This document shows positions 24,410 through 64,000 of a DNA stretch of 64,000 nt, in pieces (the first letter of the stretch is position 1; the number at the start of each line of letters is the position of its first letter). The stretch is from Candidatus Bathyarchaeota archaeon (lineage in GTDB: Archaea; Thermoproteota; Bathyarchaeia; Bathyarchaeales; Bathycorpusculaceae). Both the position numbers and the translations under genes were made by a program. The notes beneath the pieces are model-generated. The model saw only the letters and a program-made list of their open reading frames with translations, did not search any database and was not told the DNA's origin. The stretch is from positions 1-64,000 of the forward strand of contig CAVYHV010000029.1 of NCBI GenBank assembly GCA_963768425.1, read 5' to 3'.

Positions 24410-24737
24410 TAAATTTTCTATGCCTCTAAATTGAGCGTTCGTAACTATTGAAAACCGTATTATTAAAACAATTTTGCTCAAAATGGAAATATCTCCCGCC
24501 GCATCTTCCATTTTTTCTATGATAATTAGGCGCTTTTTTTGCCTATTTTATGCCTATTTTAGCCATTGGTTTTCCTTAAGAGTGGAGAATCGCTCTTATA
24601 ATGTGTCTTTGAAAGACGTTCAAAAATATATGCAACCTGACAGAAATAGGTGATAAGCCAGAGTCAAAAATTCTTGTTTACTAACATCTACGTTTTCTTT
24701 TTTGTTTGCATCAGTCTTTGTTTCGTCAACTAATCAA

Positions 24738-44021: not shown

Positions 44022-44700
44022 ATGAATTACAATTCTTTCCGCAGGATTTTAAGAAACAAGTACGCTCTTAGCACTGTCGTAACGACGCTCATTATCCTAG
44101 TAATTTCAGTGCTGCTGGCTAGCGTAGTCACTTACTTCGCTATTAACGTAGTTAGCACGAGGGTTCAAGAAGAAAGTCTTTCGCTAAGCGATGCTCACAT
44201 ATGGCTCAACCCATTGGCTGCCGCAGGGGCTGCCACCTATTCTCAGGCTTCACTTAAGGTCATTAATACTGGTGGTAGAGATGTGGTCATCACTAAGATA
44301 GCTGTCAGAGGTCAAGACAACGCATGGACTTCTTGGGCAACCGGAACACCCCCAACTGATAGTCAATTCTTGGTCTATTCAATAACTAACTCGCCCATAC
44401 AAACTGACATGTACTTCCAGCCTACTATGGCAATTCCAGTAGCTGATCCAGCCACCGTCGCTACACCTGTGACACAGCAACTTGCTCTAACTGGTGGCGC
44501 AGCAACTGCTCCAGCCGGATTCGCATTCAATTATGCTACAACTGACTTAGTGCTCAAATCAGGCTATACACTTGCTAGTCTACATAATGAATCCTGACAG
44601 CATCACCATAAACGACATCGGCTTAACCGTTAGCATAACGCTCTACACAGCGCAGGCAATGTACTATCAAGAATGCAACGTCCAAGCCTACACAGCATAA
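44022..44700 (+). CDS. Type IV major pilin-like protein 1 (frameshift ~44572)
   Basis: GGAGGTGA RBS; class III-like signal RRILRNKYA/LSTVVTTLIILVISVLLA; NTGGRDVVI motif. The corrected C-terminus matches pilin 2. Confidence 0.88.
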
Positions 44701-45057
44701 TAAGATCCTAAAAGCCATATCGAGGTTAAACCAATAATTCAAAACGTGACCGCTGAGTCGGGTTTCATAACAACCCCTCTTATTTGCGGGACTTATTTTT
44801 TTTACATTTCATCAAGCAGCGACTTGTCTGTCAGGATTGGCTCGCACAGTTTATTATAAATACTTATTTTAGAACATGGTTTGTTTTTCATATTTCTAAG
44901 AAGGATGGGTTGTATTAAATCTCACTACAGAAGACATTTATAAACAAAGCACCTAACAAAAGACCTAACAAAAGTTACTCGGAGTGGGGAATATTGAACA
45001 AAAACCAACAACAAATCGAACACACAAACGCATCCCTAAACAAGGGAGGTGACTAAT

Positions 45058-45728
45058 TTGAATTGCATTTCATTCCATAAACTCTTGAAAAACAAGTACG
45101 CTCTTAGTACTGTCGTAACGACGCTCATTATCCTAGTAATTTCCGTGCTGCTGGCTAGCGTAGTCACTTATTTCGCCATAAACGTAGTTAGCACGAGGGT
45201 TCAAGAAGAAAGTCTTTCGCTAAGCGATGCTCACATATGGCTCAACCCATTGGCTGCCGCAGGGCTGCCACCTATTCTCAGGCTTCACTTAAGGTCATTA
45301 ATACTGGTGGTAGAGATGTGGTCATCACTAAGATAGCTGTCAGAGGTCAAGACAACGCATGGACTTCATGGGCAACGGGTCCTTTAGATAGTCAATTCTT
45401 GGTCTATTCAATAACTAATCAGCCTATACAAACTGACATGTACTTCCAGCCTACTATGGCAATTCCAGTAGCTGATCCAGCCACAGCCGTTACACCCGCG
45501 ACACAACAGTTCCTTCTGACAGGTGGCACGGCAACTGGCAATAACGGATTTGTCTTCAATTATGCTACAACTGACTTAGTTCTCAAATCAGGCTATACAC
45601 TGCTAGTTTACATAATGAATCCTGACAGCATCACTATAAACGACATCGGCTTAACCGTTAGCATAACGCTCTACACAGCGCAGGCAATGTACTATCAAGA
45701 ATGCAACGTCCAAGCCTACACAGCATAA
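45058..45728 (+). CDS. Type IV major pilin-like protein 2 (frameshift ~45262)
   Basis: Near-identical to pilin 1; TTG start after GGAGGTGA; GGG versus GGGG in pilin 1. Confidence 0.88.
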
Positions 45729-45873
45729 TTATCCAATTAAAGTCCAAGATGCTAACACAGGGTTATTTTTAAAACCCTAAATTTTGTTTCTTTTTTGTTT
45801 ATGTGTTTTTTTTGTGACGCACAAGTTTACTTATCTTGATTTTGCTGAATAGTTTTTCAAAGTGAAATGTAAA

Positions 45874-46443
45874 ATGAGAATGAAGAATATACTGAAGAAT
45901 CGTTTGGCTTTAAGTACAGTCGTTACTACTTTGATTATTCTAGTGGTTTCGGTGCTGCTCGCAGGTGTCGTTACTTACTTTGCTATCAACGTTACTAGCA
46001 CTCGAGTTCAAGAAGAAAGCCTACAACTAACAAAACTACACGTATGGTATGATTCAGCTGCTCCCAGAGGTCAAGCTGCATTTCTGATAATGAACACTGG
46101 AGGCCGAGATGTCGTAATAAATAAAATTACGATACGTGGACAACAAGCAACCTGGGGTAACGTCTATTATGGCGTATCGGCAACTTACACAGTCAGCGCC
46201 GACCTGGCATACATAAATTCCGCCACTCCCGCATCTGCCCTCGCAGTGGATGGCACTACAGGTCACAACGTCGCATTAACAGCAGCTACAGGAGACATAA
46301 CTTTGCAATCAGGCGCTAGCATGGTTGTTTACATCGCAGGCCTAGACAGCGTAACTATTAACGACATAGGCTTAACTGTTGGAATTACCGTGTTCACTTC
46401 GCAAGCGATGTACTATCAAGAAGCCAACGTACAAGCAGCATGA
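45874..46443 (+). CDS. Type IV major pilin-like protein 3 (intact)
   Basis: KNILKNRLA/LSTVVTTLIILVVSVLLAG; shared C-terminus DSVTINDIGLTVGITVFTSQAMYYQEANVQA. Confidence 0.9.
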   Translation: MRMKNILKNRLALSTVVTTLIILVVSVLLAGVVTYFAINVTSTRVQEESLQLTKLHVWYDSAAPRGQAAFLIMNTGGRDVVINKITIRGQQATWGNVYYGVSATYTVSADLAYINSATPASALAVDGTTGHNVALTAATGDITLQSGASMVVYIAGLDSVTINDIGLTVGITVFTSQAMYYQEANVQAA

Positions 46444-46831
46444 TAAATTGAACAAGGCAACAAATATTTAACTCATAAGACCCCACCCAAAACCCCCCAC
46501 TATCTCTTCTTTTTCTTTTAAACTTAGATCTTTGATTACAAGAAATATTGCTACAATTAGCGTTAGTTTTTAAAATTTAATTTGCCAAAGCGAAAGCAAG
46601 TTTCAAGTTCAAGGAAACTAGAGCAGCATTTTTCTACAAAAGAATCAAAGAATGCGCTGAGCGCAGCCACAATTCTACTTCAGCTTTTTCTTTCTATCAA
46701 TCAAAACCCGCTGGTAGCTAACAAGTGAATAGATACAAAAATCGGGGTTCCCTTTTTGCAATGTGTTTTTTTTGTTACGCACAAGTTTACTTATCCAAAG
46801 TTTGCTGTTTGTTTTTTTAGTGAAATGTAAA

Positions 46832-47430
46832 ATGAGAATGAAGAATATACTGAAGAATCGTTTGGCTTTAAGTACGGTCGTTACTACGCTGATTATTCTA
46901 GTGGTTTCGGTGCTGCTCGCAGGTGTCGTTACTTACTTTGCTATCAACGTTACCAGCACAAGGGTTCAAGAGGAAAGCTTATCGTTGGAAATGCTACACG
47001 TTTGGTGTCCGCAGTCTGCAAGCGCGACAACAGGTCAATATCCAGCTGAAGCAGCGTTTGTGATCATTAATACTGGCGGTCGAGACGTAGTTATAAACAA
47101 GATCACGGTTCGAGGACAAGAAGCACCCTGGGCTCAAGTCTATTCGGCAGTAGGCTCAGTAACATCAGACCTTACATACATAGCAGGAACAGATGCGACA
47201 ACCAACAATGCAGTTGCAATTTTGACAACTGCCGATACTATTAATAACCGGTGATGACAATGGCTGTTGCTTCAGGTGATATTACGTTGAAATCAGGTGA
47301 TAGCATGGTTGTTTACGTTGTAGGTCCAGATAGCATCACTATTAACGACATAGGCTTGACTGTTGGAATAACGGTGTTCACTTCGCAAGCGATGTACTAT
47401 CAAGAAGCCAACGTCCAAGCATACAGCTAA
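46832..47430 (+). CDS. Type IV major pilin-like protein 4 (frameshift ~47250)
   Basis: Same N- and C-termini and upstream DNA as pilin 3, with a divergent middle. Confidence 0.87.
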
Positions 47431-47665
47431 ATAGCGTAGATTAAGTAATCTAAAAGTAATCTACCCCCACAACCCCCCAATCTTTCTTTTTTCTTTTCAA
47501 TATAGCAAACTTTTGAGCAAACCTTCAATTTTTGTGCTTACTATAATCTTGATTTCTAATATGAAAATAATGTGTAGATTGTTAATACACACAAACCGCT
47601 TAATCGGTTTCCCATAGTTTTTATAGTAAATGCATGCTTACGAGGAGATGTAACTGACGGCAGAT

Positions 47666-48493
47666 TTGCATAGTCGATTGTTCAGACGGTTTGTTCGTTC
47701 CAAGAAAGCGTTAGCTTTGCCAGTTACATTTCTAATACTGTTGGTATCTACACTTGGCATTATTTCAGTTACTTATTATTTTTCAATTGAAAGAATCAAT
47801 TCACAAAGCGAGGCTCTCAAAGTTTCCACAGCTCAACAGGACTTTTTATCTCTGGATAATGTTATTCTTTCCACTTTAGGCCAGCCTGGTTCTTCAGCGA
47901 CGTTTGACTTGGCGGACTCAGGTGGATTAATAAACGTCCAGCCAACTAACGACACTCTAACAATCGACGTTAATGACAACTCTACCATCGACGCAACTGT
48001 CTTTAACGCCTCAGTAGGGCAAGTTTCCTATGATCTTCCATTTTCAGGTTCAATCGAAACAGGTCTTTACTTGGAAGGTGATAGCCAAACAATAACCAAC
48101 CAAAGTGGCTCGTCACCAAGTCAACTTTTCCTAACAAATGGTGTTCAGGGACCTGTGATCCAGTTGCGATATCGGCCGACTGTGACATATGCGACTGCTG
48201 GATTCGAAAATGATCACGCTGTCACTGACATTCGCATCTATTTAGTCAACCTGAACTCTTCAGATCCAATTGCGCTGCAAGGTGCGCTTCCCTTACAAAT
48301 CTCTTGCGCGAGCACACAATTAACAACTGAAACCTACCAAGTTTCCAATCAATTTGAAAACTTGGAGATATCTTCACAACTGAACGGTGCTCAGGGATCA
48401 ATTTCTGTCCCCATCCAAAGCGGTCCTCAAGGCTCAATAATCAACATAGAAACTGTCATTTCTAACATATCAATTGAGAGGTGGATCTCTTAA
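47666..48493 (+). CDS. Pilin-like (minor pilin) protein
   Basis: RRFVRSKKA/LALPVTFLILLV class III-like signal followed by a beta-rich domain. Confidence 0.75.
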   Translation: MHSRLFRRFVRSKKALALPVTFLILLVSTLGIISVTYYFSIERINSQSEALKVSTAQQDFLSLDNVILSTLGQPGSSATFDLADSGGLINVQPTNDTLTIDVNDNSTIDATVFNASVGQVSYDLPFSGSIETGLYLEGDSQTITNQSGSSPSQLFLTNGVQGPVIQLRYRPTVTYATAGFENDHAVTDIRIYLVNLNSSDPIALQGALPLQISCASTQLTTETYQVSNQFENLEISSQLNGAQGSISVPIQSGPQGSIINIETVISNISIERWIS

Positions 48494-48937
48494 ATGGTAT
48501 CGATTATTCCAAGCTACGTGTACTCGCTGTTTGCAGCCCTCATCGTCGGCACAATTCTAGTTTCAAGCTGCAGCCTTTCAATGGTAAACTTGAAAAATGA
48601 AGCAGGAAATCAACAATTATCCAATGTTGATGAATATGTTGCAGCCCAAAGCCTGACTCTCATAGGCCAGACTATCCAAGACAACCAGAATACCACTCAA
48701 TTTCTGGATCTTCCTTCGCAAATTGGAAACCAAATTTACTGGGTATGCTTAACGAACGACTCGTTTAGTGCGTCGGTTGAATCCGGCTTCGGAACAACGG
48801 CCTCCTTGAATCAACCACAATTATACATACCAGCCGAAATCTCTGCATCAGGCATTTTCGTTAGCAGTTGGGGTAGGCCTCTGCTGCAATGTTGCTACCA
48901 AAACCAAACGATTACATTAACATTAACTAGTGAGTGA
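48494..48937 (+). CDS. Pilin-like accessory protein
   Basis: N-terminal hydrophobic helix, LDLPSQIG..Y.V motif; located inside the pilus operon. Confidence 0.65.
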   Translation: MVSIIPSYVYSLFAALIVGTILVSSCSLSMVNLKNEAGNQQLSNVDEYVAAQSLTLIGQTIQDNQNTTQFLDLPSQIGNQIYWVCLTNDSFSASVESGFGTTASLNQPQLYIPAEISASGIFVSSWGRPLLQCCYQNQTITLTLTSE

Positions 48938-50520
48938 TTGAATTGAAAATAGGAAAAAAGAAACAAGAAATCCAAGAAAAAGAAAAAACCTCAGACGAGG
49001 AAATGATTGCGTACTTAGGAATTCAGGGGTATCAGGTACCTGAAGGCTACTCGCAAATCGAAAGTTACCCGCTCAATCCGCCGTTCTCCTACGCATGGGT
49101 ATTCCAAGATGATGCCGAAGGAAGCTTTTTCTACGTTGTTGACGAACTTCCCATGTCCCGAGAAGAAAGAGAATCATACAAGCGGCTTAAGAATATTCTT
49201 GAGTATGAGCTCAAAGCCCCAAGGCTGGATGAAACGCTCATTTCCTCATTTCACAGACAGCTTCCAACCATTCTTGATGAGCACCAAAAGGGTCTCGAAG
49301 ATACCGATCAAGTAGGCCTGAGAAAAATCACTTATTATCTTGAAAAAGACTTAATCGGTTACGGAAAAATCGAAGGTCTCATAAACGATCCACTAATAGA
49401 AGATATAAGTTGTTTAGGGATAAACAAGTCTATCTATATTTATCACAGAAAATACGCTAACGCAAAAACCAACATTATCTTTACCGATGAGGAAGAACTA
49501 GATGATTTCATAACTAGAATAGTACACCGACAGGGAAAACACGTAAGCATAGCGCACCCAATAGTAGACTTAACTCTTCCAGGAAAACACAGACTTGCTG
49601 TCTCATTCGGAAAAGAAACAACCCCTGCCGGAACAAGTTTTACAATAAGAAAATTCAAAGAAGATCCGTTAACAATCGTAGATCTCATTATCAATGAAAC
49701 AATTGACGAATCAATCGCGGCGTATCTTTGGATGTTAATGGAAAACAAAATGTCAGTCATGATTGTAGGTCCAACAGGCGCAGGAAAAACAACCGCCTTA
49801 AACGCTATTGCATGTCTGGTTAGGCCAGAACTCAAAATGATTTCAGTTGAAGAAGTTCAAGAAATTAACTTGCCGCAGGAAAACTGGGTGTCAACTATCG
49901 CAAGAACAGGATTCGGTGGGGAAGGCGAAGGCGAGGTCACCCTTTTCGACCTGATCAAGTCAGCCGTCAGGCACCGACCCGCATTAATTCTTGTAGGCGA
50001 AATTAGAGGCGAAGAAGCATACGTTCTGTTCCAAGCTTTAGCAACAGGACACGGAGGCCTATGCACAATGCACGCCGACGATGTAGAAACTGTCATTAAA
50101 CGACTAACACAACCGCCCATGAACATTCCACAAAACATATTGTCGCTAATGAACTGCGTAATAGTGGTCAAACAAGTCAAAACAACAAACATTAACCCAC
50201 ACGAACGAAAACTATCATCAAGAAAATTCGTAGAAATCGCTGAAATCGATAACAACGGTATTCCTCACGAAGTCTTCAATTGGAACATGTCTTCAGACTC
50301 TTTCCAACAAAACCTAGATCAAAGCTACTTACTTTCAAAAATCGCAAAAAACCTCGATGCTCCATTAAGCGTTGTGCAGCAAGAGTTTGATCGAAGAAAA
50401 CAAATTCTGCTCAAAATGGTTGACAAAAACCTCCGTGACTTCAGGAGTGTCCACAGAGCATTAAACAGTTCAATAAATCTCTTGGAATTAGCGGCCAAAG
50501 AAAAATCAAAGGAGCAATAA
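48934..50520 (+). CDS. Type IV pilus assembly ATPase (PilB/ArlI/VirB11 family)
   Basis: IEDISCLG, SFTIRKF, GPTGAGKTT, RHRPALILVGEIRGEEA, TGHGGLCTMHA. Confidence 0.93.
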   Translation: MIELKIGKKKQEIQEKEKTSDEEMIAYLGIQGYQVPEGYSQIESYPLNPPFSYAWVFQDDAEGSFFYVVDELPMSREERESYKRLKNILEYELKAPRLDETLISSFHRQLPTILDEHQKGLEDTDQVGLRKITYYLEKDLIGYGKIEGLINDPLIEDISCLGINKSIYIYHRKYANAKTNIIFTDEEELDDFITRIVHRQGKHVSIAHPIVDLTLPGKHRLAVSFGKETTPAGTSFTIRKFKEDPLTIVDLIINETIDESIAAYLWMLMENKMSVMIVGPTGAGKTTALNAIACLVRPELKMISVEEVQEINLPQENWVSTIARTGFGGEGEGEVTLFDLIKSAVRHRPALILVGEIRGEEAYVLFQALATGHGGLCTMHADDVETVIKRLTQPPMNIPQNILSLMNCVIVVKQVKTTNINPHERKLSSRKFVEIAEIDNNGIPHEVFNWNMSSDSFQQNLDQSYLLSKIAKNLDAPLSVVQQEFDRRKQILLKMVDKNLRDFRSVHRALNSSINLLELAAKEKSKEQ

Positions 50521-50522
50521 AA

Positions 50523-52037
50523 ATGGCTTCTGGAGGCTTCATAGGCAAAATATTCGGTAAACTAACTAAAGCTTCCAGCGAAGAGAAAGAAAAAACTGAA
50601 CAAGAACTGCCTTTCGCCGTAATGATTTTTACTCTTTTGGCCGCAAGTGGAATATCTCCATATGACAGCTGGAAAAAAATGCGAAAGCTTTTCTTTCTTC
50701 CTCTATTCAAAAAGGAAGCAGATGAAGTCATACGTCAAGTTGAAGTATTAGGCAAAGACCCTCTAACCGTCATGCAACAGCGTTCAGAAACAACAACCTC
50801 AAAGTTATACAGAAATTTTCTGGGGGGCTTTGTTTCTTCGATTAGAAGCGGCGGACAAATGACTGATTACATGAAAAGCCAGTTGAAAGCGATCTTTGAA
50901 CTGCGATACATCAACCTGAACCGATCGATTGAGAGAATAGCTACTTTGGTAGAAGCTTATTCAGTCATGTTAATCGTTGTGTTATGCTCCTACATCCTTT
51001 TTGTAGTCTTAGGATCAACAAATGCAGTCTCGCTTCTTTCAAGCAGCTTCGCTTCCAATTCGCCCACATTGTCTTACTTGGTAGCTTTTGTCATTATGCC
51101 TGTGATGTCATGCGTCTTCATTATGATGGCGCATAATCTGCAAAGGAGCGCTTTTCCTGATTTAAAAGATCTCTACAGAAAAGCCCTATTCTTTATCCCA
51201 CCTGCATTCGCAGTAATAGCGCTCTTCGCAATGGTTCCTTCATTGTCACAGTTGATAAGCCCTATAGGATTACCTGCAATCACTACAATATGTTTGGTTG
51301 GAGCTTCGTTACCAATGGCTATCCAATATTGGCACATCGCAAAAATCAACTACAACGCAGAAGAATCAATCCCTAGCTTCATAAGAGACGTAACTGAATC
51401 ACAAAAAACGGGGCTTTCACCAGAAAAAAGCATAATACAAGCAACGAAACGCAAAGATTACGGCCCTTTCTCCAAGTTTTTAGACTTAATGCGAAGCCAA
51501 ATAGAATGGGGAATACCTTTAAGAAAAACTTTTGACAACATGCGTAAACAAATTCGAAGTTGGTTTGTAACAATTAACTTTTCTATGATGGTGGAAACAA
51601 TTGAAATCGGCGGCAACTCAATTCAATCGTTAGAGATACTTTCCGAATATAGCGAAAAGGAACGCGAATTACAACTTAATCGAAGGGAACTTTTGAAACC
51701 TTACATTCTTCTTGCTTTGATGTGGAGCGCATTGATCGCCGTTACTACCACAATAGTAGCTTTAACCACTAACTTAACCACCGGTATGATGACAACAATT
51801 GACGGCACAGACCTCGGGTCAGTGGCTGCAACGTCTATGCAGGGTCAGATGGGCATGTTCTCTGTAGGCATTATTATTCAATGCTGGATCTCAGGTTTCT
51901 TCATCGGAAAAATAAGCGAAGGCAACTTAGGTGCTGGTTTCAAACACGCAGCATTGCTGGCTTTAACAGCATATGTATCTTTGGTCGTCTCTCAATTCCT
52001 TCTAGCTGGTCTTTTTGGGGGACTAAAGTTCAGTTAA
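50523..52037 (+). CDS. Two-domain T2SSF/PilC (ArlJ-like size) membrane platform protein
   Basis: Two T2SSF repeats (ELPFAV..FTLLAASGISP and IPSFIRDVTESQKTGLSP); C-terminal GFFIGKISEG...GFKH. Confidence 0.9.
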   Translation: MASGGFIGKIFGKLTKASSEEKEKTEQELPFAVMIFTLLAASGISPYDSWKKMRKLFFLPLFKKEADEVIRQVEVLGKDPLTVMQQRSETTTSKLYRNFLGGFVSSIRSGGQMTDYMKSQLKAIFELRYINLNRSIERIATLVEAYSVMLIVVLCSYILFVVLGSTNAVSLLSSSFASNSPTLSYLVAFVIMPVMSCVFIMMAHNLQRSAFPDLKDLYRKALFFIPPAFAVIALFAMVPSLSQLISPIGLPAITTICLVGASLPMAIQYWHIAKINYNAEESIPSFIRDVTESQKTGLSPEKSIIQATKRKDYGPFSKFLDLMRSQIEWGIPLRKTFDNMRKQIRSWFVTINFSMMVETIEIGGNSIQSLEILSEYSEKERELQLNRRELLKPYILLALMWSALIAVTTTIVALTTNLTTGMMTTIDGTDLGSVAATSMQGQMGMFSVGIIIQCWISGFFIGKISEGNLGAGFKHAALLALTAYVSLVVSQFLLAGLFGGLKFS

Positions 52038-52052
52038 AGGAGAAACAATGCG

Positions 52053-53096
52053 TTGCCTTCAACCGCCATCGACACTTTTTTTGCATGTACCATCATTGTA
52101 GCTGCAGCTTTAATTTCGACCGCTTTTCTATGCTCAACATTGCAAACCAGCATGAACGGCACTCAAAACATCAACAAAGACAGTTACCTACAAGCCATAG
52201 CCAACGGAATCATAGCAAATCCTGGAGCCCCCATTGACTGGGGATCCAACAAAGGCGTTCCTGTTGACTTTGGTCTAGCATCCAATTCTTCGATACTTCC
52301 TTATGAACTAGACATAGATAAAATCTCTCGACTAAACAACCTAAACAACTACTCATTAAGCTATCCTGATATGGCCATTGCGGCTAAACTAAACAATATT
52401 GCTTTAGGCATAACAGTCTCTCAGGTTATGAACATAGACATTGAAAAATCAAGCACAACCACAGTAGGCAATGACGAATCTTTTGTCTTCACGATTTTAA
52501 CAAGTATCGATTCTGAACCCAATAGTGCAAGCATAAACTGCTATGTGGTAGCAAATAGTTACCTAAGCAACATAACCAGTAACACCTCAGACGTTGGGGT
52601 CGGTCAAGTTACTATTCAAATCCCAACCAATTCAACAAGCAATGCAATGCTTGTAGTGTTCGCGAGGGCAAACTTTGACGATAGAATAACATCATATGCC
52701 GTTTACAACTTCGATTCAAATCAGGAATCAGCACCAAGCGACAATATTCTAACTCTAACCCCCCTTAACTACACGTTAAGCTACTTAACAAATTCAACAG
52801 ATTTAACACTCCAACATGGCTACGTTTTCACTTACGCGCATCAGGATAATCTTGCCTCCGTGCAAGGTACAACTCAGTACCAAATTCCGATGCAAATCGA
52901 CAAAAGTCCCTTTGTATTAGTGCTCTGCGGTTTCAACAACGATACCTACTTTCAAGAATGGACTTCTTACCCTCAAATCCCATTGAAAGCAGGTTCAAAC
53001 TTTGAAGATTCGGAACAAAACGTCTTCAGCTATATTGTTACAATAAACAATGTGCTCTATAAAGTCAACATAAGCTTTGGAGATGTTGTTTCCTGA
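52053..53096 (+). CDS. Pilus-associated pilin-like/adhesin protein
   Basis: N-terminal IDTFFA..IIVAAALI helix, NPGAPIDWG...FGLA motif, N/S/T-rich body. Confidence 0.7.
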   Translation: MPSTAIDTFFACTIIVAAALISTAFLCSTLQTSMNGTQNINKDSYLQAIANGIIANPGAPIDWGSNKGVPVDFGLASNSSILPYELDIDKISRLNNLNNYSLSYPDMAIAAKLNNIALGITVSQVMNIDIEKSSTTTVGNDESFVFTILTSIDSEPNSASINCYVVANSYLSNITSNTSDVGVGQVTIQIPTNSTSNAMLVVFARANFDDRITSYAVYNFDSNQESAPSDNILTLTPLNYTLSYLTNSTDLTLQHGYVFTYAHQDNLASVQGTTQYQIPMQIDKSPFVLVLCGFNNDTYFQEWTSYPQIPLKAGSNFEDSEQNVFSYIVTINNVLYKVNISFGDVVS

Positions 53097-53521
53097 GGCT
53101 GCTAAAAAATAAGAAAGGACAAGTTCGAATAATTGAAGCATTTTTGGCCTCAGTCTTGTTGATGTCATGCCTGACTCTCATTCCTGCATCGCCAAACGTC
53201 CAGAATTCCTCGGGAAATCTTGCTTCAACAGCCCAAAATGTTTTGTTAAGTTTAGATGGCAACGGGCACTTGACAGCCTTGGTTGACAGCAAAAACTGGG
53301 CAGAGCTTAGAGATTGTCTGGCGTCTGCTCTTCCGCTTACAGTATGGTTTAACTTAACAGTTTTCGACCAAAACATGCGTATCATAAACGCTTTTCCAAT
53401 CTGCAACGCAGGCACTTTGAGTGATAAAATTGTTTCAGTAAACTATGTTTGCGCAAGCCAAAACAGTACATATGCAATCTACATCCTGAGGCTGCAACTT
53501 TCAGAGGAAGGAATAACATGA
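53093..53521 (+). CDS. Minor pilin with class III signal KKG/QVRIIEAF; probable CTG start
   Basis: The frame is open back to CTG 53093, which overlaps the upstream TGA; GGAG lies upstream. Confidence 0.75.
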   Translation: MRLLKNKKGQVRIIEAFLASVLLMSCLTLIPASPNVQNSSGNLASTAQNVLLSLDGNGHLTALVDSKNWAELRDCLASALPLTVWFNLTVFDQNMRIINAFPICNAGTLSDKIVSVNYVCASQNSTYAIYILRLQLSEEGIT

Positions 53522-54297
53522 AAAGGCGCAGCCTAAAGCACAACAAATCAGGCCAAGTAATAATAATCACCGCTTTACTCGTAGCGTTGCTTTTACTATC
53601 CACCTCCATCTATGTCATTGAAACCGAAAAAGAAGTACCACAAGCAGGGACCAACGAAAACACCGTTTTCTCGGCATACAAGCAAAGCACAATAAACACC
53701 GTGATAAGTGCATTAGCAAACGCAACTAATGGCGGCGACTCCAGCGTTTTGACCAATGACCTAAACGAATTGAAATCGACCATCTCTTCTAATTCATACC
53801 AAGCCATTGTCCAAATGGATTATAATACGCTGGACGAAGCTCCCTACCAAAATGGCATTTGGATTTCTTGGGGTACAGCTGGTCAAGGCATCTCAAGCGC
53901 TTGTGTCAATTTGGCATTTAAAAGCTTAGGGTTTTCAACAACTTCTAACGTGGAATATAATGTAAACATAACGACGGCGGCAGATTTGAGCGGAAAGTGT
54001 TTCCAACCTAAAAGCAACTTAACTCAAGTAACATTAACAATCAACATATTCAACGAAGGTAAACCAGCTTTAGCTCAAAACTTAACCTTTTACTTTGAAT
54101 GTAACCCTTCCTGGATAACTCCAAATTGGGTAAAAGTGAACGCGCCAAGCATAACAAACTTCGGAAATGGAACATATCTGGTTTCTTTTACGACTGAACC
54201 AAATCCTTTGAACGACCCTGTTCTTGTCTCTATGCTTTGCCAAGATCAACGCGGTATATATGTAGAAACAAACGTGACATGTACCAACACAGGATAA
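53518..54297 (+). CDS. Minor pilin with class III signal NKSG/QVIIITALL
   Basis: ATG 53518 overlaps the previous stop; basic leader followed by a hydrophobic helix. Confidence 0.78.
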   Translation: MKRRSLKHNKSGQVIIITALLVALLLLSTSIYVIETEKEVPQAGTNENTVFSAYKQSTINTVISALANATNGGDSSVLTNDLNELKSTISSNSYQAIVQMDYNTLDEAPYQNGIWISWGTAGQGISSACVNLAFKSLGFSTTSNVEYNVNITTAADLSGKCFQPKSNLTQVTLTINIFNEGKPALAQNLTFYFECNPSWITPNWVKVNAPSITNFGNGTYLVSFTTEPNPLNDPVLVSMLCQDQRGIYVETNVTCTNTG

Positions 54298-54364
54298 AAA
54301 TTAAAAATGTTAAATCTAAACAAAAATGCCTTGCTCTGTTTGAAGAAAGGAGAAGCAGCAACGA

Positions 54365-55708: not shown

Positions 55709-55811
55709 TCAAGCTTCAAAAATTAGCCACAAACTACCAAGCAAAAGCCCGAAGCTACTCCGACTAATAAACTCTTAAAAAATCTTAAATGATGATTGGT
55801 TTATCAGTCGT

Positions 55812-56705
55812 TTATTCTTCATTTAGTTTAGAGAATAGCATTCGAAGAACCTTAACGAAGGCACTGTAGTTTGTCCAGATTGCCGCTGTTTTGTCTTTCT
55901 TTTTTACGTCTTCATCGTTTGCTGCATCTTCATGGAATGCGATCAATACTTCTTTATTATCAGAAATCATAATGCATGGCAAGTTTTGATCATCAACGAT
56001 GCGATTAGATTCACTTAACCATTGTAGTTGTCCAATGAAATAAGCGCTTTTTAAAGAGTTATCAGTTACCAAGGTGATGTTTGCTTTGTCCGCTTGCTTT
56101 TTGAGTTTGTCCGAAAAGTCGCTATAATATAATTGTGCAAGGTAGTCGGCTGAGGCGAAGACTTGGAATTCTTTTTCGGATTTTTCAAGCATTTCATTAG
56201 CCTTCATCAGTACCTGCTGTTCACCCTCAAGCATCTGGAAAAGCTCTTTCTTCGCCGCCACTGCTTTCCGCTGAGGCATTGATTGCCAAAGTTCCACAAG
56301 ACTTGTTTTCTCTTGTTCTAAGAGCCTTATTTTTATTTTTTGTGCATCTACAAGCATGTCAATAGCTTTGTCTAATGGAACAGCGGTGAATTTTAGAGGT
56401 TTCTCGAAAATGGAAAACACTATGCCCCTTTTCTCAAGATCCCGCAAGATTCTGTAAGTTTCAGTCCGATGAAGTGAAATTGCTTCCGCTATTTCTCCGG
56501 CTTTCATTTCGCCTACTCTTGCAAGGTGCAAGTAAACTTTGATCTCGTTTTTAAGTAGTCCAAACCTTGAGAGTGTCTCTTCAACGGTTGATAATTGCTC
56601 AGTGTAAGTCTGATCTTTCTTTACTGTTCTCCACGATTCGTTTTGCTTATTGTACACTTTTATTAGTTCTTGCTTTTCCATTGCGAGTACCATTTTGGGG
56701 TTCAC
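55812..56705 (-). CDS. TrmB-family transcriptional regulator
   Basis: LSRFGL..NEIKVYLHL...AGEIA..ISLHRTETYRILRDLEKRGIV...KPLKFTAVP, then a coiled coil and effector domain. Confidence 0.88.
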   Translation of the reverse strand: MNPKMVLAMEKQELIKVYNKQNESWRTVKKDQTYTEQLSTVEETLSRFGLLKNEIKVYLHLARVGEMKAGEIAEAISLHRTETYRILRDLEKRGIVFSIFEKPLKFTAVPLDKAIDMLVDAQKIKIRLLEQEKTSLVELWQSMPQRKAVAAKKELFQMLEGEQQVLMKANEMLEKSEKEFQVFASADYLAQLYYSDFSDKLKKQADKANITLVTDNSLKSAYFIGQLQWLSESNRIVDDQNLPCIMISDNKEVLIAFHEDAANDEDVKKKDKTAAIWTNYSAFVKVLRMLFSKLNEE

Positions 56706-56875
56706 CTTTCTCCATATTTTAGGTCTTGTCTCCTAATTCTAACCATTTATATATAATATGATTACGACTTGAAAATCTGAATTCAGAATTCATGTTCGGT
56801 TAAAACTTACAAACAAGCAGCTTTTTGGAGGGCTGTCCCCAAATCAGATTAGCAGCGTAGAAGGCTATTTTTAGG

Positions 56876-58594: not shown

Positions 58595-58611
58595 AATGCA
58601 ATAACTCCTAA

Positions 58612-59637
58612 TTATTGCGATTTATTAAAAACTGCTTCCAGGATCCTCCTCACGTCTGCTTGGACTTCAACGTTGTCGCTGGTTAGCCCAATTAAAGTTT
58701 CTTCAGCTGCACTCATAGGAGTATTTCCATCTTTTACTAAAGTAGCCCAGTTGATTAAGTCACCCAACGAGGGTCCATAAGGCAGGTCGCCGGCTTTGTA
58801 TTGTCTTCTTAATTCAGCGCCAGCTTGAATGATTTTATAAGCGGTATCCTGATCAATCTTCGTCCTTTTCTGTAACATGTCCACTTCATCTGGAGAGATG
58901 GTTTCTCCGACACTTAGGAAATCAAAGTTTATCCAGACAGCCATGCGTCTTCTCATGGCGGCGTTTAGAGGTTTTGTCCCCGAGAATTCAGCTGTAGCGG
59001 GGTTCATGCTGATAATCATATACCCGTATTTGTGGCGTTCAATGACTTCGCTGTCTTTTTCATTAAGAACCAAGTGACCTCTTGTGTCTAAAACTGGGTT
59101 TAGTCTTGTGGCTACGTCTTGTTTCATCATGTTTGCTTCGTCGAGGTACATGATGCCGCCTTTCCTTAGCCACTGGGTTAATAGTCCATCTACCCAGTTT
59201 TCTTTGCCAAGCCCGATAAATCGTCCAATGAGGTCGAATGATGATGTTGATAAGCCGCAGTTGACTTCCCAAATTGGTAAACCCGTAAGCTCAGCTACCA
59301 AGTAGACGATATGGGTTTTTCCAGTTCCTGACGGTCCGATTAAGCTGCACTGTTTAAAATAATAGAGCGCGCGCACAATCCGTTCAACGTAGTTAAAGCC
59401 ATGGTCTAAGTATTCAGGTGTTCCTTTTGGTATCATGCTGTCCAAGTGGGCGAAGCTGAAGTTTGGGTGTAAGTCAAATCTCTGTATGTTGTATTTTTCG
59501 TATAATGGGCTCTTAGACATTGGGCGCTCTTTATCAAGGGATACTGTAACCTTGAATTTGTCTTCTTTGAGGGATGATACCTCTTGAACTCTACTTGCTT
59601 CAGCTTTTTCTTTTAGCCCTTGATGTCCATAACTCAT
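58612..59637 (-). CDS. MoxR-type AAA+ ATPase (CbbQ/NirQ/NorQ-like)
   Basis: Walker A GPSGTGKT, DLIG...WVDG.L, Walker B YLDEAN, SMNP, PLNAAMRRR. Confidence 0.9.
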   Translation of the reverse strand: MSYGHQGLKEKAEASRVQEVSSLKEDKFKVTVSLDKERPMSKSPLYEKYNIQRFDLHPNFSFAHLDSMIPKGTPEYLDHGFNYVERIVRALYYFKQCSLIGPSGTGKTHIVYLVAELTGLPIWEVNCGLSTSSFDLIGRFIGLGKENWVDGLLTQWLRKGGIMYLDEANMMKQDVATRLNPVLDTRGHLVLNEKDSEVIERHKYGYMIISMNPATAEFSGTKPLNAAMRRRMAVWINFDFLSVGETISPDEVDMLQKRTKIDQDTAYKIIQAGAELRRQYKAGDLPYGPSLGDLINWATLVKDGNTPMSAAEETLIGLTSDNVEVQADVRRILEAVFNKSQ

Positions 59638-59930
59638 TTGGCGCCGTCTCTAACGCGATAAAAGTTGGAAACCGAATAAATAAGTATTATGAATTACTAC
59701 TTGATATGTCATATACACATGTGAATGTGAAAAAGCCTATTCACAATTCCTCGTAGATTTCATTAAAGCAAAGTACCTCACGGATCCTAAACGTTTGGCG
59801 TTTAATTTATTTGCGTTTCTTGTTGAATTATGTTCCAAAATATAGTGCAATGTTATAGTGTAGTGCTACACAACGCTTTTATATGGTTATCTTAAGATTT
59901 AAGATAACAATATCTTAGAGACGAACCGAA

Positions 59931-60299
59931 ATGGGCACAATCATGATAGTGGATGACGCTTCGTTCATGCGGGCAGTCCTGAAAAAAATAGTCTTACAAG
60001 CGGGTCACGAAGTAATCGCTGAAGCTGCAAATGGGGACGATGCTATCGCTCAGTTTCAACAATCAAAACCGGATCTCGTACTTATGGATATAATCATGCC
60101 TCCTGGACCAAAAGCCAAAGATGGCATAGAGGCCCTCAAACAAATCGTTGCATGTGATCCGTCTGCAAAAGTAGTAATGTGCAGTTCAATGGGGCAGCAA
60201 TCATTAATTGTGGAAGCAATAAAGTCGGGTGCTAAAGACTTCGTCATAAAACCGTTTCAACCTCAAAAAGTAATTGAAGCAATCACAAAATACTGCTGA
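59931..60299 (+). CDS. cheY: Chemotaxis response regulator CheY
   Basis: IVDDASFMR, PDLVLMDIIMP, MCSSMGQQ, DFVIKPFQ. Confidence 0.93.
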   Translation: MGTIMIVDDASFMRAVLKKIVLQAGHEVIAEAANGDDAIAQFQQSKPDLVLMDIIMPPGPKAKDGIEALKQIVACDPSAKVVMCSSMGQQSLIVEAIKSGAKDFVIKPFQPQKVIEAITKYC

Positions 60300-60420
60300 G
60301 GCAAATCAGTTGTTTCCTCTTTCGGCGAGTCACGAATACAAGAAAGCATGGTTTAGCACGCCCAGTAAAATTAGGAGCAATCCTAAGGTTGCCTATCAGC
60401 GACTGGAGTTAACACCATGT

Positions 60421-60927
60421 GTGACCATAGAAGCTAATACGGGTCCAATGGTGGAAGAGGTTCGAGTGGACATGGCAGATATGAGGGTAGAAAGCAAAAA
60501 TGTTGAGCTATTAACAAGTGTCGGATCTTGCGTAGCAATATGCTTGCACGATTCCGTGCACAAATGTGGGGGGTTAGCTCACATTATGCTTCCAAACTCT
60601 GCTAATGTATCGCAAGAACCTCTTCCATCAAAATTTGCGAACACAGCTGTTCCAGCTCTTATAAAGGAAATACACGCAATTACTGGAAAACAAAGTCGTC
60701 TTTCAGCTAAAATCGCAGGAGGCGCTAACATGTTCGCAAACATAGGTACTAATCATTTAGACATAGGCGCTAAAAATGTTAAAGCAGTTAAGACTTCATT
60801 AGATGAACACAAAATATGGCTGGCCGCTGAGGACGTAGGTGGCTTGCATGGAAGAAGAATTTCATTCAATGTTGCTTCCGGCAAGACAATTGTCAAGCAG
60901 TATAACGGAGACATAAAAGAGCTATGA
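60421..60927 (+). CDS. cheD: Chemoreceptor glutamine deamidase CheD
   Basis: VGSCVAICLHD...GGLAHIMLP, AKIAGGANMF, IGAKN, AEDVGG..GR. Start uncertain (60421 or 60448). Confidence 0.93.
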   Translation: MTIEANTGPMVEEVRVDMADMRVESKNVELLTSVGSCVAICLHDSVHKCGGLAHIMLPNSANVSQEPLPSKFANTAVPALIKEIHAITGKQSRLSAKIAGGANMFANIGTNHLDIGAKNVKAVKTSLDEHKIWLAAEDVGGLHGRRISFNVASGKTIVKQYNGDIKEL

Positions 60928-61598
60928 ACAATCAAATCAAGGTCGACTTAACCACCGAATCTGACAGCAAAGAACCTTCCAAGCTCTCTGTTGGTAAAGA
61001 AATCAATTTAGGTATTCTCTTAGAGCTTGGAAGTATAGGGGCAGGGCATGCTGCAACCTCTTTATCTGACATACTCCAGCAACCCATATCAATCGATGTT
61101 CCTACAATTCATACAATTCAAGCGCATTTGATTCCCACTTTCTTCAACATGCACGAAATGCCAACGATTGCCGTCTATCTGCAACTTACGACAGAGTTCG
61201 GATGCGACATTTTATTAATGTTCGAGCTAACGGAAGCGAAAAAGATAGCAGCTATGATGACTTGTGCATCTTCTATTGAAGAACTGGATCCAGCAATGGA
61301 AACATCAGCTATACATGAGCTTGCAAACATTCTCATAGGATCATTCTTGACAGCGATCTCGGATTTCATTGGAATCAGCCTTCTTCCTACTACGCCTCAA
61401 AGCTCAGTTGATACCTTCGACGCGATACTTGACGGTTTTCTCATTAAGCAATCTATGTTTTCCGAAAATGCAATGGTATTTGAAACACGCTTTAAACGCC
61501 AAGGTGAAAACGCAAATTGCATACTAATGATATTTCCAAGCCAGGAACTGAAAGAACTGATTGCTAAGAAATCAAAACCGGTCATCGAAATTCAATGA
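60924..61598 (+). CDS. cheC: CheY-P phosphatase CheC
   Basis: ELGSIGAGHAATSLS and SAIHELANILIGSFLTAI. Confidence 0.92.
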   Translation: MNNQIKVDLTTESDSKEPSKLSVGKEINLGILLELGSIGAGHAATSLSDILQQPISIDVPTIHTIQAHLIPTFFNMHEMPTIAVYLQLTTEFGCDILLMFELTEAKKIAAMMTCASSIEELDPAMETSAIHELANILIGSFLTAISDFIGISLLPTTPQSSVDTFDAILDGFLIKQSMFSENAMVFETRFKRQGENANCILMIFPSQELKELIAKKSKPVIEIQ

Positions 61599-61629
61599 AC
61601 GCAAAGAGAAGGTTGAGGCAGAAAAATAT

Positions 61630-62468
61630 TTGGTCGAGCAAGTCAAAACGGATTCTTTGCAGGACTTCTTAGATAAAATGGCTTTTCAAAAAGTTAAAAA
61701 AATGCTGTTTGAAAATGCCGGAGTAAACTGTTCAGGTTACAGAGATGAATATTTAAAGCGGCGTTTTGAAATCCGATTAAGAGCAACTGGCGCCAACTCA
61801 TACGGCAGGTACATTACTTATTTAAGAAATAATCCGGAAGAATTCAAAAACTTACTTAATGATATGACGATTAACTTTACCATGTTTTTCAGAGATACTG
61901 ATGTTTACACATATCTTGAAAAAGTGCTTCTTCCCAAGATCTTCAAGTTATCGAAGCCTACCCGAATTTGGAGTGCCGGCTGCGCTAGTGGGGAAGAGCC
62001 TTATTCCTTGGCCATTTTGGTTCATAAAGTCCTTGGGGAAAAAATATGTGATCATCCTGTAACAATTTTTGCTTCTGATATCGACAAAGATGCGCTATCA
62101 ACTGCTGCAAAGGGCGAGTATTCCCAAAGGCAGCTAAGTAACCTGAGTAGGGACTTAGTGGACCGATTCTTTACAAAGAGGGAGAACTTTACAAAGTTCG
62201 CAATTCTGTGAGACAAATCATTCATTTTCACGAGTTCGATTTAATGGCTCCTTCTGTGCACCTGAATCTAGATCTTATTTTATGCAGAAACGTAATGATC
62301 TATTTTTCAAAGGAAAGTCAACAACAAATCCACATGAGCTTCTATAAGGCTTTGAAATCTGACGGTTACTTTATTACTGGAAAATCAGAAATCTTGAGCG
62401 GTGAACCAGCGGCAAAATTTCTAGCGGTGGACCAACAAGTTAGAGTTTATCAAAAACCCAGCAAGTAA
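61630..62468 (+). CDS. cheR: Chemotaxis methyltransferase CheR (frameshift ~62178)
   Basis: TINFTMFFRD, RIWSAGCASGEEPYSLAI, ASDID, DLILCRNVMIYF. Confidence 0.93.
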
Positions 62469-62620
62469 ATGAATCGTCAAAATACTTGCTTTCAAATATG
62501 TCTCTTTAAGGTCTGAGTGTCTGATTAAAGACACACTCTACCAAATTACCTAATTTGTCTCAGATTGTTGTATTAGATCTGAAATTCGAAGGTGCAGATT
62601 CGACCTTAGGTGAAAAGGCA

Positions 62621-64000
62621 ATGTCATTTGATAACGATCAATATAGGCAATTATTCATAGATGAGGCAAAAGAGCATTTAGATACAATAACTAAATCAAT
62701 GTTGATTTTAGAAAAAGAACCCGAAAACCAAGAGGTTATTAACATGCTTTTTAGGGCAGCTCACACGTTAAAGGGTTCGTCAGGAATGATGGGCTTCAAA
62801 GACTTTCAAGAGCTCACTCATAACATGGAAGATATCTTTGATGACATGCGAAAGGGCAATCGACCCTCCTGTAATCTCATCACAGCTCTTCTGGAATGTT
62901 TAGATGCTTTATCACAGCGACTTGAAAACATACAAAATAAAGTCGATGGCGACATTGAAGTTGAACAATTCAAAGATAAGTTGCAAAAGGCTAAGTCTCA
63001 ATTGCAAATCTTGCAACCACAAAAGGAGAATGAAAGTAAGCAATCAGCGCTTGAAAATAATAGGCTTGATTTTAACGAAAACGAAAAAGAGTTAATCAGT
63101 AAGGCTGAAAATGCAGGCGAACAATGTTTCATAATTAATTTCAAATTTGCAGACGATTGCAGTTTCAAGACTATTCGAGCAAGTATGGTTTTGGACAAGA
63201 TTGCCGAAGTTGCGAGAATAGTGAAGTCTGTTCCAGCAAGTGAAGAATTTGACGAGCAGAAGCTCAGCCAGGGCTTTAAAATGGCTGTCACTAGGCAAGC
63301 TTGACGAAGAAACAGTCGCAAAAAGCGCTAAGAGCGTTCTTGAGGTAGAGAGTGTAAGCATTTCAGCTTATAACACATTTGCTCCCCCTGTCAAGAAGAC
63401 TCTTGATGGCCTTTTGGCTGAGAATAATTACGTCATAACTGTTGAAAATAAAAAAATTGTCAAGGTCCTTCAGGACCAGGCGGCTACTCAAACTGTTCGA
63501 GTAAAGTTTGATCAGCTTGACAAATTGATGAATTGGGTAGGTGAACTTGTTATCAACAAAATCGCCCTTCTTCAGATAACCTCGGATAATCGAAACGACC
63601 AATTGAAGCATGTTACAGAAAACATTGATCGGTTAACCGCTGACTTGCAAGATCTCGTAATGGAAGTCCGAATGGTGCCCGTCAGTCAGGTATTCGACAG
63701 GTTTCCGCGTTTGGTTAGAGATCTTTCGTTAAAAAAAGGAAAGAAAATTGATTTGGTTATGGAGGGAAAGGACATTGAAGTTGACAGGACAGTATTGGAT
63801 GAAATTGGTGAGCCGTTAATTCATTTGCTTCGAAACAGTGTTGACCATGGTGTGGAAACTCCAGAAGATAGAGTGAAAATAAACAAAAATGAAACTGGAA
63901 CGATTAAGCTTTCGGCTCAGAGAAATGGCAATCAAGTAATTATAGAAATCCAAGATGATGGGGCTGGAATCGACCCTGAGAAACTAAAGGAGTCAGCTCT
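62621..64000 (+). CDS. cheA: Chemotaxis histidine kinase CheA (frameshift ~63295; runs off the window)
   Basis: HPT LFRAAHTLKGSSGMMG; then TVRVKFDQLDKLMNWVGELVI, RMVPV..VFDRFPRLVRDL, HLLRNSVDHG, IQDDGAGID. Confidence 0.95.

Follow-up and report, generated by a model that had tools for sequence, protein, structure and literature searches.

Archaeal chemotaxis is taught as a route that leads from the Che proteins through CheF to the archaellum. The locus described here raises the question of what a Che pathway might control when the genes that share its neighbourhood encode a type IV pilus (T4P). It lies on contig CAVYHV010000029.1 of a Candidatus Bathyarchaeota archaeon (GenBank assembly GCA_963768425.1), of which positions 1 to 64,000 of the forward strand were analysed; this whole stretch of 64,000 nucleotides is referred to below as the window. 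An earlier reading of its sequence (the original prediction) had reported che genes clustered with multiple pilins, five accessory genes, an ATPase, and a platform protein, and our Pfam and open reading frame (ORF) scans bear this grouping out. We propose that a Che pathway of the F1-like type signals to an Aap-like pilus by way of lineage-specific adaptors, a reading to which we assign a probability of roughly 0.55.

The ORF listing, together with Pfam and NCBIfam scans, places the T4P locus at 44004-55708 on the plus strand, with four tandem pilins, five pilin-like accessory ORFs, one ATPase, one platform, and a surface beta-propeller protein. The genes cheY, cheD, cheC, cheR, and cheA run from position 59931 to the end of the window. 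The two gene sets occupy the same island, as had been claimed, but they do not directly adjoin: a gap of 4.2 kb with three opposite-strand genes, for a TrmB-family regulator, a vWA-domain protein, and a MoxR-type AAA+ ATPase (55812-59637), separates the pilus genes from cheY. The island would consist of two modules, a TACK-type, Aap-like T4P and a complete F1-like chemosensory pathway. The first would comprise four paralogous major pilins, five pilin-like minor subunits, the ATPase, the platform, and two surface-anchored proteins. The second would comprise methyl-accepting chemotaxis proteins (MCPs), CheW, CheA, CheY, CheR, CheB, CheC, CheD, and a REC-CheC fusion, with two small, lineage-specific cytoplasmic proteins, designated X1 and X2, standing in place of CheF.

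A pilus machine, not an archaellum

The original prediction had allowed for either a pilus or a divergent archaellum, and the evidence favours the pilus. On the NCBIfam equivalog model for ArlI, the window ATPase scores 345.6 bits against a cut-off of 550 bits, and its orthologs in two other Bathyarchaeia loci (L012 and L015) score 341.5 and 337.2 bits, compared with 688 bits for a control ArlI encoded beside che genes in locus L042. Among the best 150 of 22,899 representatives at 50% identity (E ≤ 0.001), 56 of ordinary length were scored, and none reaches the cut-off (288 to 456.5 bits); the other 94, mostly long, multi-stretch sequences (probably intein-bearing or fused) or short fragments, were left out of the scoring and the trees. 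The best match among PDB sequences is the non-archaellar GspE of A. fulgidus (336 bits, E = 2.7e-99), ahead of FlaI of S. acidocaldarius (229 bits). Three trees were built, one by FastTree (61 rows) and two by IQ-TREE (31 rows; LG+G4 and LG+C20). In all of them the window ATPase, that of L012, that of L015 (included in the 61-row tree only), and representative P0241 form a clade with support of 100, nested in a larger clade, also with support of 100, that lacks ArlI. ArlI falls in the other half of the trees, together with the ATPase of a second pilus-like locus in the window (3294-5168), and forcing it together with the che-linked clade costs 31.3 log-likelihood units and is rejected (approximately unbiased [AU] test, p = 0.005). 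The model score sets the ATPase apart from ArlI, and the three trees and the AU test set it apart from the one verified ArlI; nesting within ArlI was the outcome that the original prediction had named as counting against it. The automatic Joint Genome Institute (JGI) name for this ATPase is "FlaI," and studies of metagenome-assembled genomes (MAGs) may over-report archaella in Bathyarchaeia because automatic annotation names the che-linked ATPase in this way. For the platform, the best NCBIfam models are BasF (95.8 bits), UpsF (93.6 bits), and ArlJ (70.5 bits), all far under their cut-offs.

The four pilin genes constitute two closely related pairs: over the repeat families, copy 2 shares 92 to 98% identity with copy 1, and copy 4 shares 85 to 89% with copy 3. 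Every one of the four is preceded by an upstream region of its own. Copy 3, the only one of the four in a single frame, has 3,672 homologs; among the best 120, every name that gives a taxon is Bathyarchaeia, Bathyarchaeota, or Bathyarchaeales. In an alignment of 39 members, Pilin_N is found in all 39 and Arch_flagellin in one, at an E value of 0.13. The AlphaFold2 model of copy 3 (pLDDT 87.9) has a 42-residue N-terminal helix (residues 2 to 43) followed by a beta-sandwich, and copy 3 thus combines a Pilin_N score above the cut-off with the modelled helix and sandwich, as is characteristic of the pilin of the type IV filament (T4F) core. Searched against the PDB with Foldseek, the model gives 15 matches at E ≤ 0.001, of which the top ones are the S. 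solfataricus pilus 6w8x (E = 6.7e-5), the P. arsenaticum pilus 6w8u, the S. acidocaldarius Aap filament 8q30, and the S. islandicus pilus 6nav; Iho670 stands at rank 40, and no archaellin is among the rows listed. A profile search of PDB sequences returns the Aap subunit 8q30_A as its sole match, at E = 0.2. The pilin thus belongs to the Pilin_N family and not to the archaellins, and its modelled fold most resembles, at modest TM-scores, that of adhesion pilins. A relationship to a Nitrososphaerota archaellin-like cluster (Atlas rank 26, score 0.91, with the archaellin family in 10% of its members) was considered and was not borne out by the Pfam counts or the fold search.

Within each pilin pair, the two genes share a conserved upstream element, at 43800-43918 and 44824-44942 in one pair and at 45779-45857 and 46739-46817 in the other, with 74 to 76% identity over 79 to 119 nt. 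These paired elements suggest that the four pilins may have separate, possibly differentially used promoters.

The pilin-like accessory ORFs, including that for the 275-aa protein, have no Pfam match, and they recur at other Bathyarchaeia loci. The gene for the 275-aa protein is kept beside the ATPase in L012 and L015, the 147-aa protein is conserved in these two loci, and the 347-aa protein is conserved in L001, L004, L006, L012, and L015. The 282-aa protein is conserved in L001, L004, and L006, and the same three loci have an ORF at the place of the small pilin-like ORF (53096-53521). The beta-propeller gene, conserved in L001 and L004-L006, encodes a protein that matches the CylK propeller (E = 5.8e-9) and, weakly, a delta-60 repeat model of NCBIfam.

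The Pfam scans of the window covered 23 ORFs in 43900-64000 (E ≤ 0.01) and 41 ORFs of at least 110 aa in 1-44000 (E ≤ 1e-4). None of these 64 ORFs matches CheF-arch, KaiC/ArlH, Arch_flagellin, or Arch_fla_DE, and the absence of ArlH, archaellin, and CheF from the window, as originally reported, therefore holds. Nor did the scanned window ORFs include a class III signal peptidase (PibD/FlaK type), whose gene usually lies elsewhere.

It seems to us highly improbable that the machine is a divergent rotary swimming filament, that is, an archaellum analogue that lost or never had ArlH and whose rotation is controlled by Che. In its favour, the major subunit is encoded by several paralogs in tandem that are conserved at both ends and vary in between, as in archaellin families, and the two small membrane proteins ahead of the ATPase stand where ArlF and ArlG would sit. 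However, profile comparison (hhalign) with the ArlF and ArlG of L042 gives a probability of only 2 to 3%, and no family match to ArlH, ArlF/G, ArlX, or ArlCDE was found among the ORFs scanned in the window and in the pilus-bearing loci. The ATPase result, the presence of Pilin_N throughout the pilin alignment, and the resemblance of the pilin model to adhesion pili also speak against this explanation. Given an ATPase that falls short of the ArlI cut-off and branches apart from ArlI in the trees, and a pilin of the Pilin_N family whose model best matches adhesion pili, we conclude that this is no archaellum but a genuine T4P machine, Aap-like and of the TACK type. Taken by itself, such a pilus is of a kind already known.

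Che genes and pilus genes across Bathyarchaeia

If the machine is a pilus, is its proximity to che genes more than an accident of one contig? A scan with the CheD alignment, one genome per species, matched at least 600 stretches, of which 584 were confirmed and the best 80 loci kept. Nineteen of these (L001-L019) form the Bathyarchaeia group. The remaining 61, which include the nearest CheD relatives outside Bathyarchaeia among the 80, belong mostly to Bacillota and other bacteria, at 37 to 46% CheD identity, and only three are from other archaea (L024, L042, and L078). Among the best 120 homologs of each window protein, identities are 77 to 100% for the ATPase, 64 to 100% for CheD, and 62 to 97% for the pilin, and the source is Bathyarchaeia wherever it is named.

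Locus L001, 99 to 100% identical to the window at the protein level, shows what follows cheA: a REC-CheC fusion, X1 (114 aa), cheW, cheB, an MCP (502 aa), and X2 (175 aa). No cheF or arl gene follows cheA there, although the original prediction had pointed to this place as one where an arl operon with cheF might still turn up. CheA, CheW, CheY, CheB, CheR, an MCP, CheC, and CheD thus stand in one cluster in L001, an F1-like set as judged by gene content; for CheA and CheY the best NCBIfam matches are haloarchaeal models, under their cut-offs. The acidic pocket of CheY, its phospho-acceptor Asp53, Ser85, and Lys107 are invariant in 16 sequences. Bathyarchaeial CheD is mostly 180 to 217 aa long (best 120 homologs), with an N-terminal extension of about 40 to 60 residues before a 159-aa core; in the window, this extension corresponds to 60274-60447 and is partly conserved in the alignment.

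At the 19 Bathyarchaeia loci, 144 of 219 otherwise unassigned ORFs were scanned with Pfam, the other 75 being mainly homologs of the window pilins and accessory proteins, ORFs of near-duplicate loci (L005, L006, and L009), and short ORFs. CheF-arch, Arch_flagellin, and Arch_fla_DE match none of the 144. A KaiC protein is present once, in L013, and fails the ArlH model (40.3 versus 215 bits). In that locus (L013:11081-12313), X1 adjoins this 249-aa KaiC-domain protein, whose best match is the "thermo_KaiC_1" model and not ArlH. L042, from an uncultured archaeon, served as a positive control: beside its che genes (L042:11682-20219), we find CheF (126.8 bits), a HEAT-repeat protein, ArlJ, ArlI, ArlH, two Arch_flagellin-family (ArlF/G-type) proteins, and ArlC/D/E.

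Mapping of the window proteins onto the 19 loci by tblastn, with flanks to about 10 kb around cheD, places parts of the pilus locus within 10 kb of cheD in 8 loci, in two gene orders. In the order of the window (order A; L001, L004, and L006, with L005 at a contig edge), the pilus genes are followed by TrmB-vWA-MoxR and then by che. In the other (order B; L012 and L015 in full), the pilus locus is inverted, with pilin genes directly divergent from cheA; the ATPase is 65% identical to that of the window, and the platform, the 347-aa, 147-aa, and 275-aa accessory proteins, and two pilins are recognisable. The contigs of L017 and L018 end in a pilin at the order-B position. In the CheD tree, from which L019 was left out (its cheD is frameshifted), the 18 Bathyarchaeia loci form one clade (support 97). 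Order B forms one clade (support 91), and order A forms two subclades of a clade (support 95) that also holds loci with no nearby pilus genes. By rough reckoning, a 20-kb window would overlap one 12-kb locus in a 2-Mb genome by chance in less than 2% of cases per lineage, so that two occurrences in different arrangements are unlikely to be a matter of chance. The che-T4P neighbourhood thus recurs across Bathyarchaeia in a second gene order, with the two gene sets within 10 kb of each other in fewer than half of the 19 loci.

Two further genes suggest exchange within the island. Homologs of up557, a surface protein encoded upstream of the pilins in the window, occur on the che side (L015 and L018 have theirs downstream of cheB, and that of L014 lies at the locus edge), and homologs of the cytoplasmic protein up192 occur just after the MCP gene of the che operon in L004, L005, and L006. 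Both genes appear to move between the pilus and che sides. The recurrence of the neighbourhood in two gene orders supports a functional link between che and the pilus, and it is from this conserved neighbourhood that we infer one.

What, then, might stand in for CheF? The first candidate, X1 (about 113 aa), is confined among the 80 che loci to Bathyarchaeia, where 17 of the 19 have it (0 of the 61 others); the two loci that lack it end before its expected position. The gene is always part of the operon and neighbours cheW or cheY. Its product is modelled (pLDDT 77.6) as a small alpha/beta fold, for which Foldseek finds no PDB match at E ≤ 0.001. No Pfam or NCBIfam family matches it, a sequence profile search of the PDB gave nothing meaningful, the Atlas feature search gave only unnamed clusters with scores below 0.9, and hhalign against the CheF of L042 gave a probability of 0.2%. 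The second, X2 (about 150 to 175 aa), is present in 10 of the 19 loci, the same subclade that keeps the vWA-MoxR pair by che, and in none of the 61; searches of Pfam, NCBIfam, and the PDB gave no match for it, and it does not resemble CheF. The third is an insert of four residues in CheY, directly after the phospho-acceptor strand; the window and 18 of 18 Bathyarchaeia loci with a hit share it, whereas all 45 other loci with a REC hit lack it, and two Omnitrophota CheYs have a three-residue insert at the same site. X1, X2, and the CheY insert set this Che pathway apart from the CheF-coupled archaeal type, from which it has diverged, and any new output coupling would most obviously be sought among them.

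We envision that receptors, many of them with PAS or Cache domains, would set the activity of CheA, and that phosphorylated CheY (CheY-P) would act, directly or via X1 or X2, on the pilus motor (ATPase plus platform) from its cytoplasmic side. This action would bias pilus assembly versus disassembly, and the cell might respond with altered surface movement (twitching-type taxis) or with a switch between attachment and release. CheR, CheB, CheD, and CheC would provide adaptation and signal termination, and TrmB and the vWA-MoxR pair would probably act on expression or assembly. A more specific proposal, for which we see somewhat less than an even chance, is that Bathyarchaeia display chemotactic surface behaviour (directed twitching or stimulus-controlled attachment and release) by means of an F1-type Che pathway and an Aap-like pilus, with X1, and perhaps X2, replacing CheF as the coupler to the pilus motor. 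If true, this would be the first archaeal taxis machine other than the archaellum.

Several points weigh against a Che pathway that feeds the pilus. The pilin fold matches are modest (query TM-scores of 0.39 to 0.43), the ArlI side of the ATPase trees consists of one verified ArlI on a long branch, and frame splits in the window affect cheR, cheA, and all pilins but copy 3. X1 has no recognisable fold or family, and its role is a guess. Close che-pilus linkage is not obligatory, because pilus genes are near che in only 8 of the 19 loci; the flanks hold none in seven, over about 10 kb on both sides in L002, L008, L010, L011, L016, and L019 and over 10 kb upstream and 7.7 kb downstream in L003, and those of L007, L009, L013, and L014 are too short to judge. 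For L002 and L019, the contig is as long as the longest one on record for a pilin cluster and for an ATPase cluster, respectively, which hints that pilus genes may be located farther along it. The scans for archaellum genes and CheF were confined to the window and the che flanks of the 19 loci. Moreover, ammonia-oxidising archaea, with thaumarchaeal archaella and che genes, are listed without cheF in the tables of one study (PMC7554672), so that the absence of CheF alone is no proof of a non-archaellar target. Bathyarchaeum tardum, the only cultivated member of the class, is described as non-motile, with no pili or flagella seen (PMC10477458).

Some of these points would also be expected if the adjacency carried no signalling meaning, with Che controlling an archaellum encoded elsewhere (perhaps a TACK-type one that lacks CheF) and the pilus a mere neighbour in a cell-surface gene island. 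The pilus-free flanks, the restriction of the scans to che loci, and the thaumarchaeal tables are all compatible with this view, as is the statement, in a 2026 analysis, that F1 systems of other archaea can sit far from archaellum genes (PMC13747009). We nevertheless regard it as unlikely, since the che-pilus neighbourhood recurs in two gene orders and in separate CheD clades, and since no archaellum part was found among the 144 ORFs scanned around che, whereas the L042 control shows the full set. In addition, the archaellum row in the tabulated part of a 2026 T4F census does not name Bathyarchaeota, whereas the row for Aap-type systems does (PMC13705601).

A different output is also conceivable, in which Che controls the expression of pilus genes or the vWA-MoxR pair and so governs an adhesion or biofilm state and not motility. 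The full taxis adaptation set (CheR, CheB, CheC, and CheD), the single-domain CheY with all its phosphorylation residues, and the lack of any DNA-binding or cyclase output domain in the che operon in Pfam scans of the loci make this rather improbable in our view, even though TrmB and vWA-MoxR lie between the modules and the vWA gene adjoins che in 11 of the 19 Bathyarchaeia loci, with the vWA-MoxR pair kept there even where no pilus lies within 10 kb. The separate upstream region of each pilin, with its conserved elements, and the non-motile appearance of the cultivated relative (as described in PMC10477458) would suit such an output as well.

On balance, we favour a Che pathway that acts on the pilus. 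The coupling, X1, X2, and the CheY features appear to be undescribed, as the original prediction had surmised: a full-text literature search, beyond which subscription journals and supplements may hold more, found no paper describing a che-pilus link in Bathyarchaeia, and none combining Bathyarchaeia, chemotaxis, and the archaellum. The conserved island, which lacks CheF and belongs to a lineage among the most abundant in sediments, would add a second output to archaeal chemosensing, with X1, X2, and the CheY insert as concrete candidates for the coupling. The island also suggests a way in which archaea that grow slowly and associate with particles may reach substrates or keep hold of them.

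Gene inventory of the window

Table 1. Features of the che-pilus island and its upstream flank, with window coordinates
Feature	Position	Strand	Remarks
up192, conserved cytoplasmic protein, 192 aa	40261..40839	-	no transmembrane (TM) segment
up557, surface protein, 557 aa	41980..43653	-	N-terminal signal-like segment and C-terminal TM anchor
Pilin copy 1	44004..44700	+	class-III-like N-terminus; frameshift near 44575-44597; repeat families D1-D3
Pilin copy 2	45049..45728	+	frameshift near 45255-45265 at G run; Pilin_N 20 bits (N-terminal piece)
Pilin copy 3, intact, likely start 45880	45862..46443	+	Pilin_N 27.7 bits (cut-off 25.2)
Pilin copy 4	46763..47430	+	frameshift near 47250
Pilin-like accessory protein, 275 aa, candidate minor pilin	47666..48493	+	basic leader, hydrophobic helix 14-41
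Small membrane or pilin-like accessory protein, 147 aa	48494..48937	+	N-terminal hydrophobic segment 1-33
T4P assembly ATPase, 528 aa	48934..50520	+	T2SSE 116.3 bits (Pfam)
Single-gene membrane platform, 504 aa, PilC/TadC type	50523..52037	+	T2SSF, two stretches; seven TM-like segments
Pilin-like accessory protein, 347 aa	52053..53096	+	N-terminal hydrophobic segment 1-32
Small pilin-like ORF, about 125-141 aa	about 53096..53521	+	class-III-like leader: basic stretch ending G-Q, then hydrophobic helix
Pilin-like accessory protein, 282 aa in the ORF listing, start probably near 53518	53449..54297	+	basic leader ending S-G-Q, hydrophobic helix 32-60
Surface-anchored beta-propeller protein, 447 aa	54365..55708	+	signal-like N-terminus, C-terminal TM anchor
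TrmB-family transcription regulator	55812..56705	-	TrmB 55.1 bits
vWA-domain protein, 572 aa	56876..58594	-	VWA_2 31.5 bits
MoxR/CbbQ/GvpN-like AAA+ ATPase, 341 aa	58612..59637	-	AAA_5 74.1 bits, CbbQ_C 49.8 bits; weak GvpN match
cheY	59931..60299	+	Response_reg 95.8 bits
cheD with N-terminal extension	60274..60927	+	CheD 103.9 bits
cheC	60924..61598	+	CheC 63.4 bits, two stretches; CheC_Thtogales 115.8 bits
cheR	61561..62468	+	CheR_N and CheR in two frames (61561-62211, 62208-62468); frameshift near 62190-62211
cheA, runs off window	62555..64000	+	frames 62555-63304 (Hpt, P2) and 63240-63998 (H-kinase_dim, HATPase_c); frameshift near 63240-63304

Frame-split genes are not confined to the island (Table 1), as TIG-domain ORFs and a dienelactone hydrolase gene are split as well; 1473-3191 and 14788-15590 are among the places affected. 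In pilin copy 1, the conserved C-terminal block runs on in another frame. The breaks inspected lie at short homopolymers (G or A runs), and cheR (302 aa) and cheA (675 aa) are intact in L001. For these reasons, we consider (long-read) assembly error a likelier cause of the frameshifts than strain-specific decay.

The TrmB gene holds the same position in L001 and L004-L006, and copies of the MoxR-type AAA+ protein that are 77 to 100% identical to it lie beside che in L001, L003-L010, and L019. A bacterial-type promoter and terminator scan of 55600-60000, a method not suited to archaea, gave 9 promoters against a shuffle mean of 8.6 and 3 terminators against 3.6. Upstream of the pilins, up192 has no Pfam or NCBIfam match; up557, with hydrophobic segments at residues 7 to 33 and 531 to 554, matches nothing in Pfam, NCBIfam, or the PDB.

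Another T4P-like locus, distinct from the che-linked one, occupies 92-8163. It consists of genes for a 624-aa ATPase with a PilB3_C tail (401.6 bits against the ArlI model, under the cut-off of 550), for two platform proteins of half size (5171-6052 and 6049-6888), and for a Cys-rich TackOD1 protein (6952-8163), preceded by fragmented TIG/IPT-domain (adhesin-like) ORFs (92-3191). Elsewhere in the window, an SMC-like set of three genes on the minus strand (21151-24511) encodes a 675-aa SMC_N-type ATPase, a 276-aa protein with a weak match to the Nse4 C-terminal (kleisin-like) domain, and a 169-aa ORF.

Comparison with known systems

Among known archaeal machines, the pilus is most readily set beside the Aap adhesion pilus of Sulfolobales, with which it shares one ATPase, one platform, pilins with class III signals, and no retraction ATPase, and the Aap filament is among the best, though modest, fold matches of the pilin model. 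It differs in its four major-pilin paralogs, its five accessory ORFs, and its link to a che operon; no Fe-S or comparable family match that would indicate an AapX-type Fe-S protein was found among the locus ORFs with Pfam. The 2026 census, in the portion that treats Aap-type systems, counts them as common in Bathyarchaeota (12% of hits) and reports simpler Aap-like systems that lack AapX for this group (PMC13705601), and the window locus fits these. In S. acidocaldarius, Aap pili are said to drive twitching with no retraction ATPase (passages of PMC10418518 and PMC13705601), and Sulfolobus twitching is described as an undirected random walk (PMC10418518, same passage).

The chemosensory module resembles the archaeal F1-CheF-ArlCDE system in its set of Che proteins, including CheC and CheD. 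It differs in that the Bathyarchaeia che flanks, in the 19 loci scanned, lack CheF, ArlCDE, ArlH, ArlF/G, and archaellin, in that its neighbour is a pilus, and in the presence of X1, X2, and the CheY insert. In the relevant sections of the 2016 survey by Makarova et al., che genes are neighbours of the archaellum, and evidence for Che control of other T4P is stated to be lacking (PMC4858521). The 2026 census mentions CheF only with archaella (PMC13705601), and the 2026 analysis treats archaeal F1 systems as archaellum regulators (PMC13747009).

The spacer genes recall thaumarchaeal T4P subclade 4A, in which a pair of vWA and MoxR/GvpN-like genes likewise lies beside a TACK-type T4P locus; the 2016 survey, in its section on these loci, links a vWA and GvpN-like ATPase pair to thaumarchaeal T4P (PMC4858521). 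Subsystem 4A has two platform genes according to the corresponding part of the census (PMC13705601), whereas the che-linked locus of the window has one and the other pilus locus (3294-8163) has two. No che link is described for subclade 4A.

Che-type control of T4P is known from bacteria, in the Pil-Chp system of Pseudomonas, the Frz system of Myxococcus, and the Tax/Pix systems of cyanobacteria, and the likeness to the pathway proposed here lies in a Che-type route that biases pilus extension and retraction for surface taxis. The bacterial systems belong to other chemosensory classes and employ PilT-type retraction ATPases and PilG/PatA-type regulators. The Tfp class (Pil-Chp type) is marked by a multi-Hpt kinase of the ChpA type, by PilG/PilH regulators, and by the lack of CheC and CheD. 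The Bathyarchaeia pathway differs from that class, as its CheA in the window has one Hpt and P2, CheC and CheD are present, and the pilus has a single ATPase.

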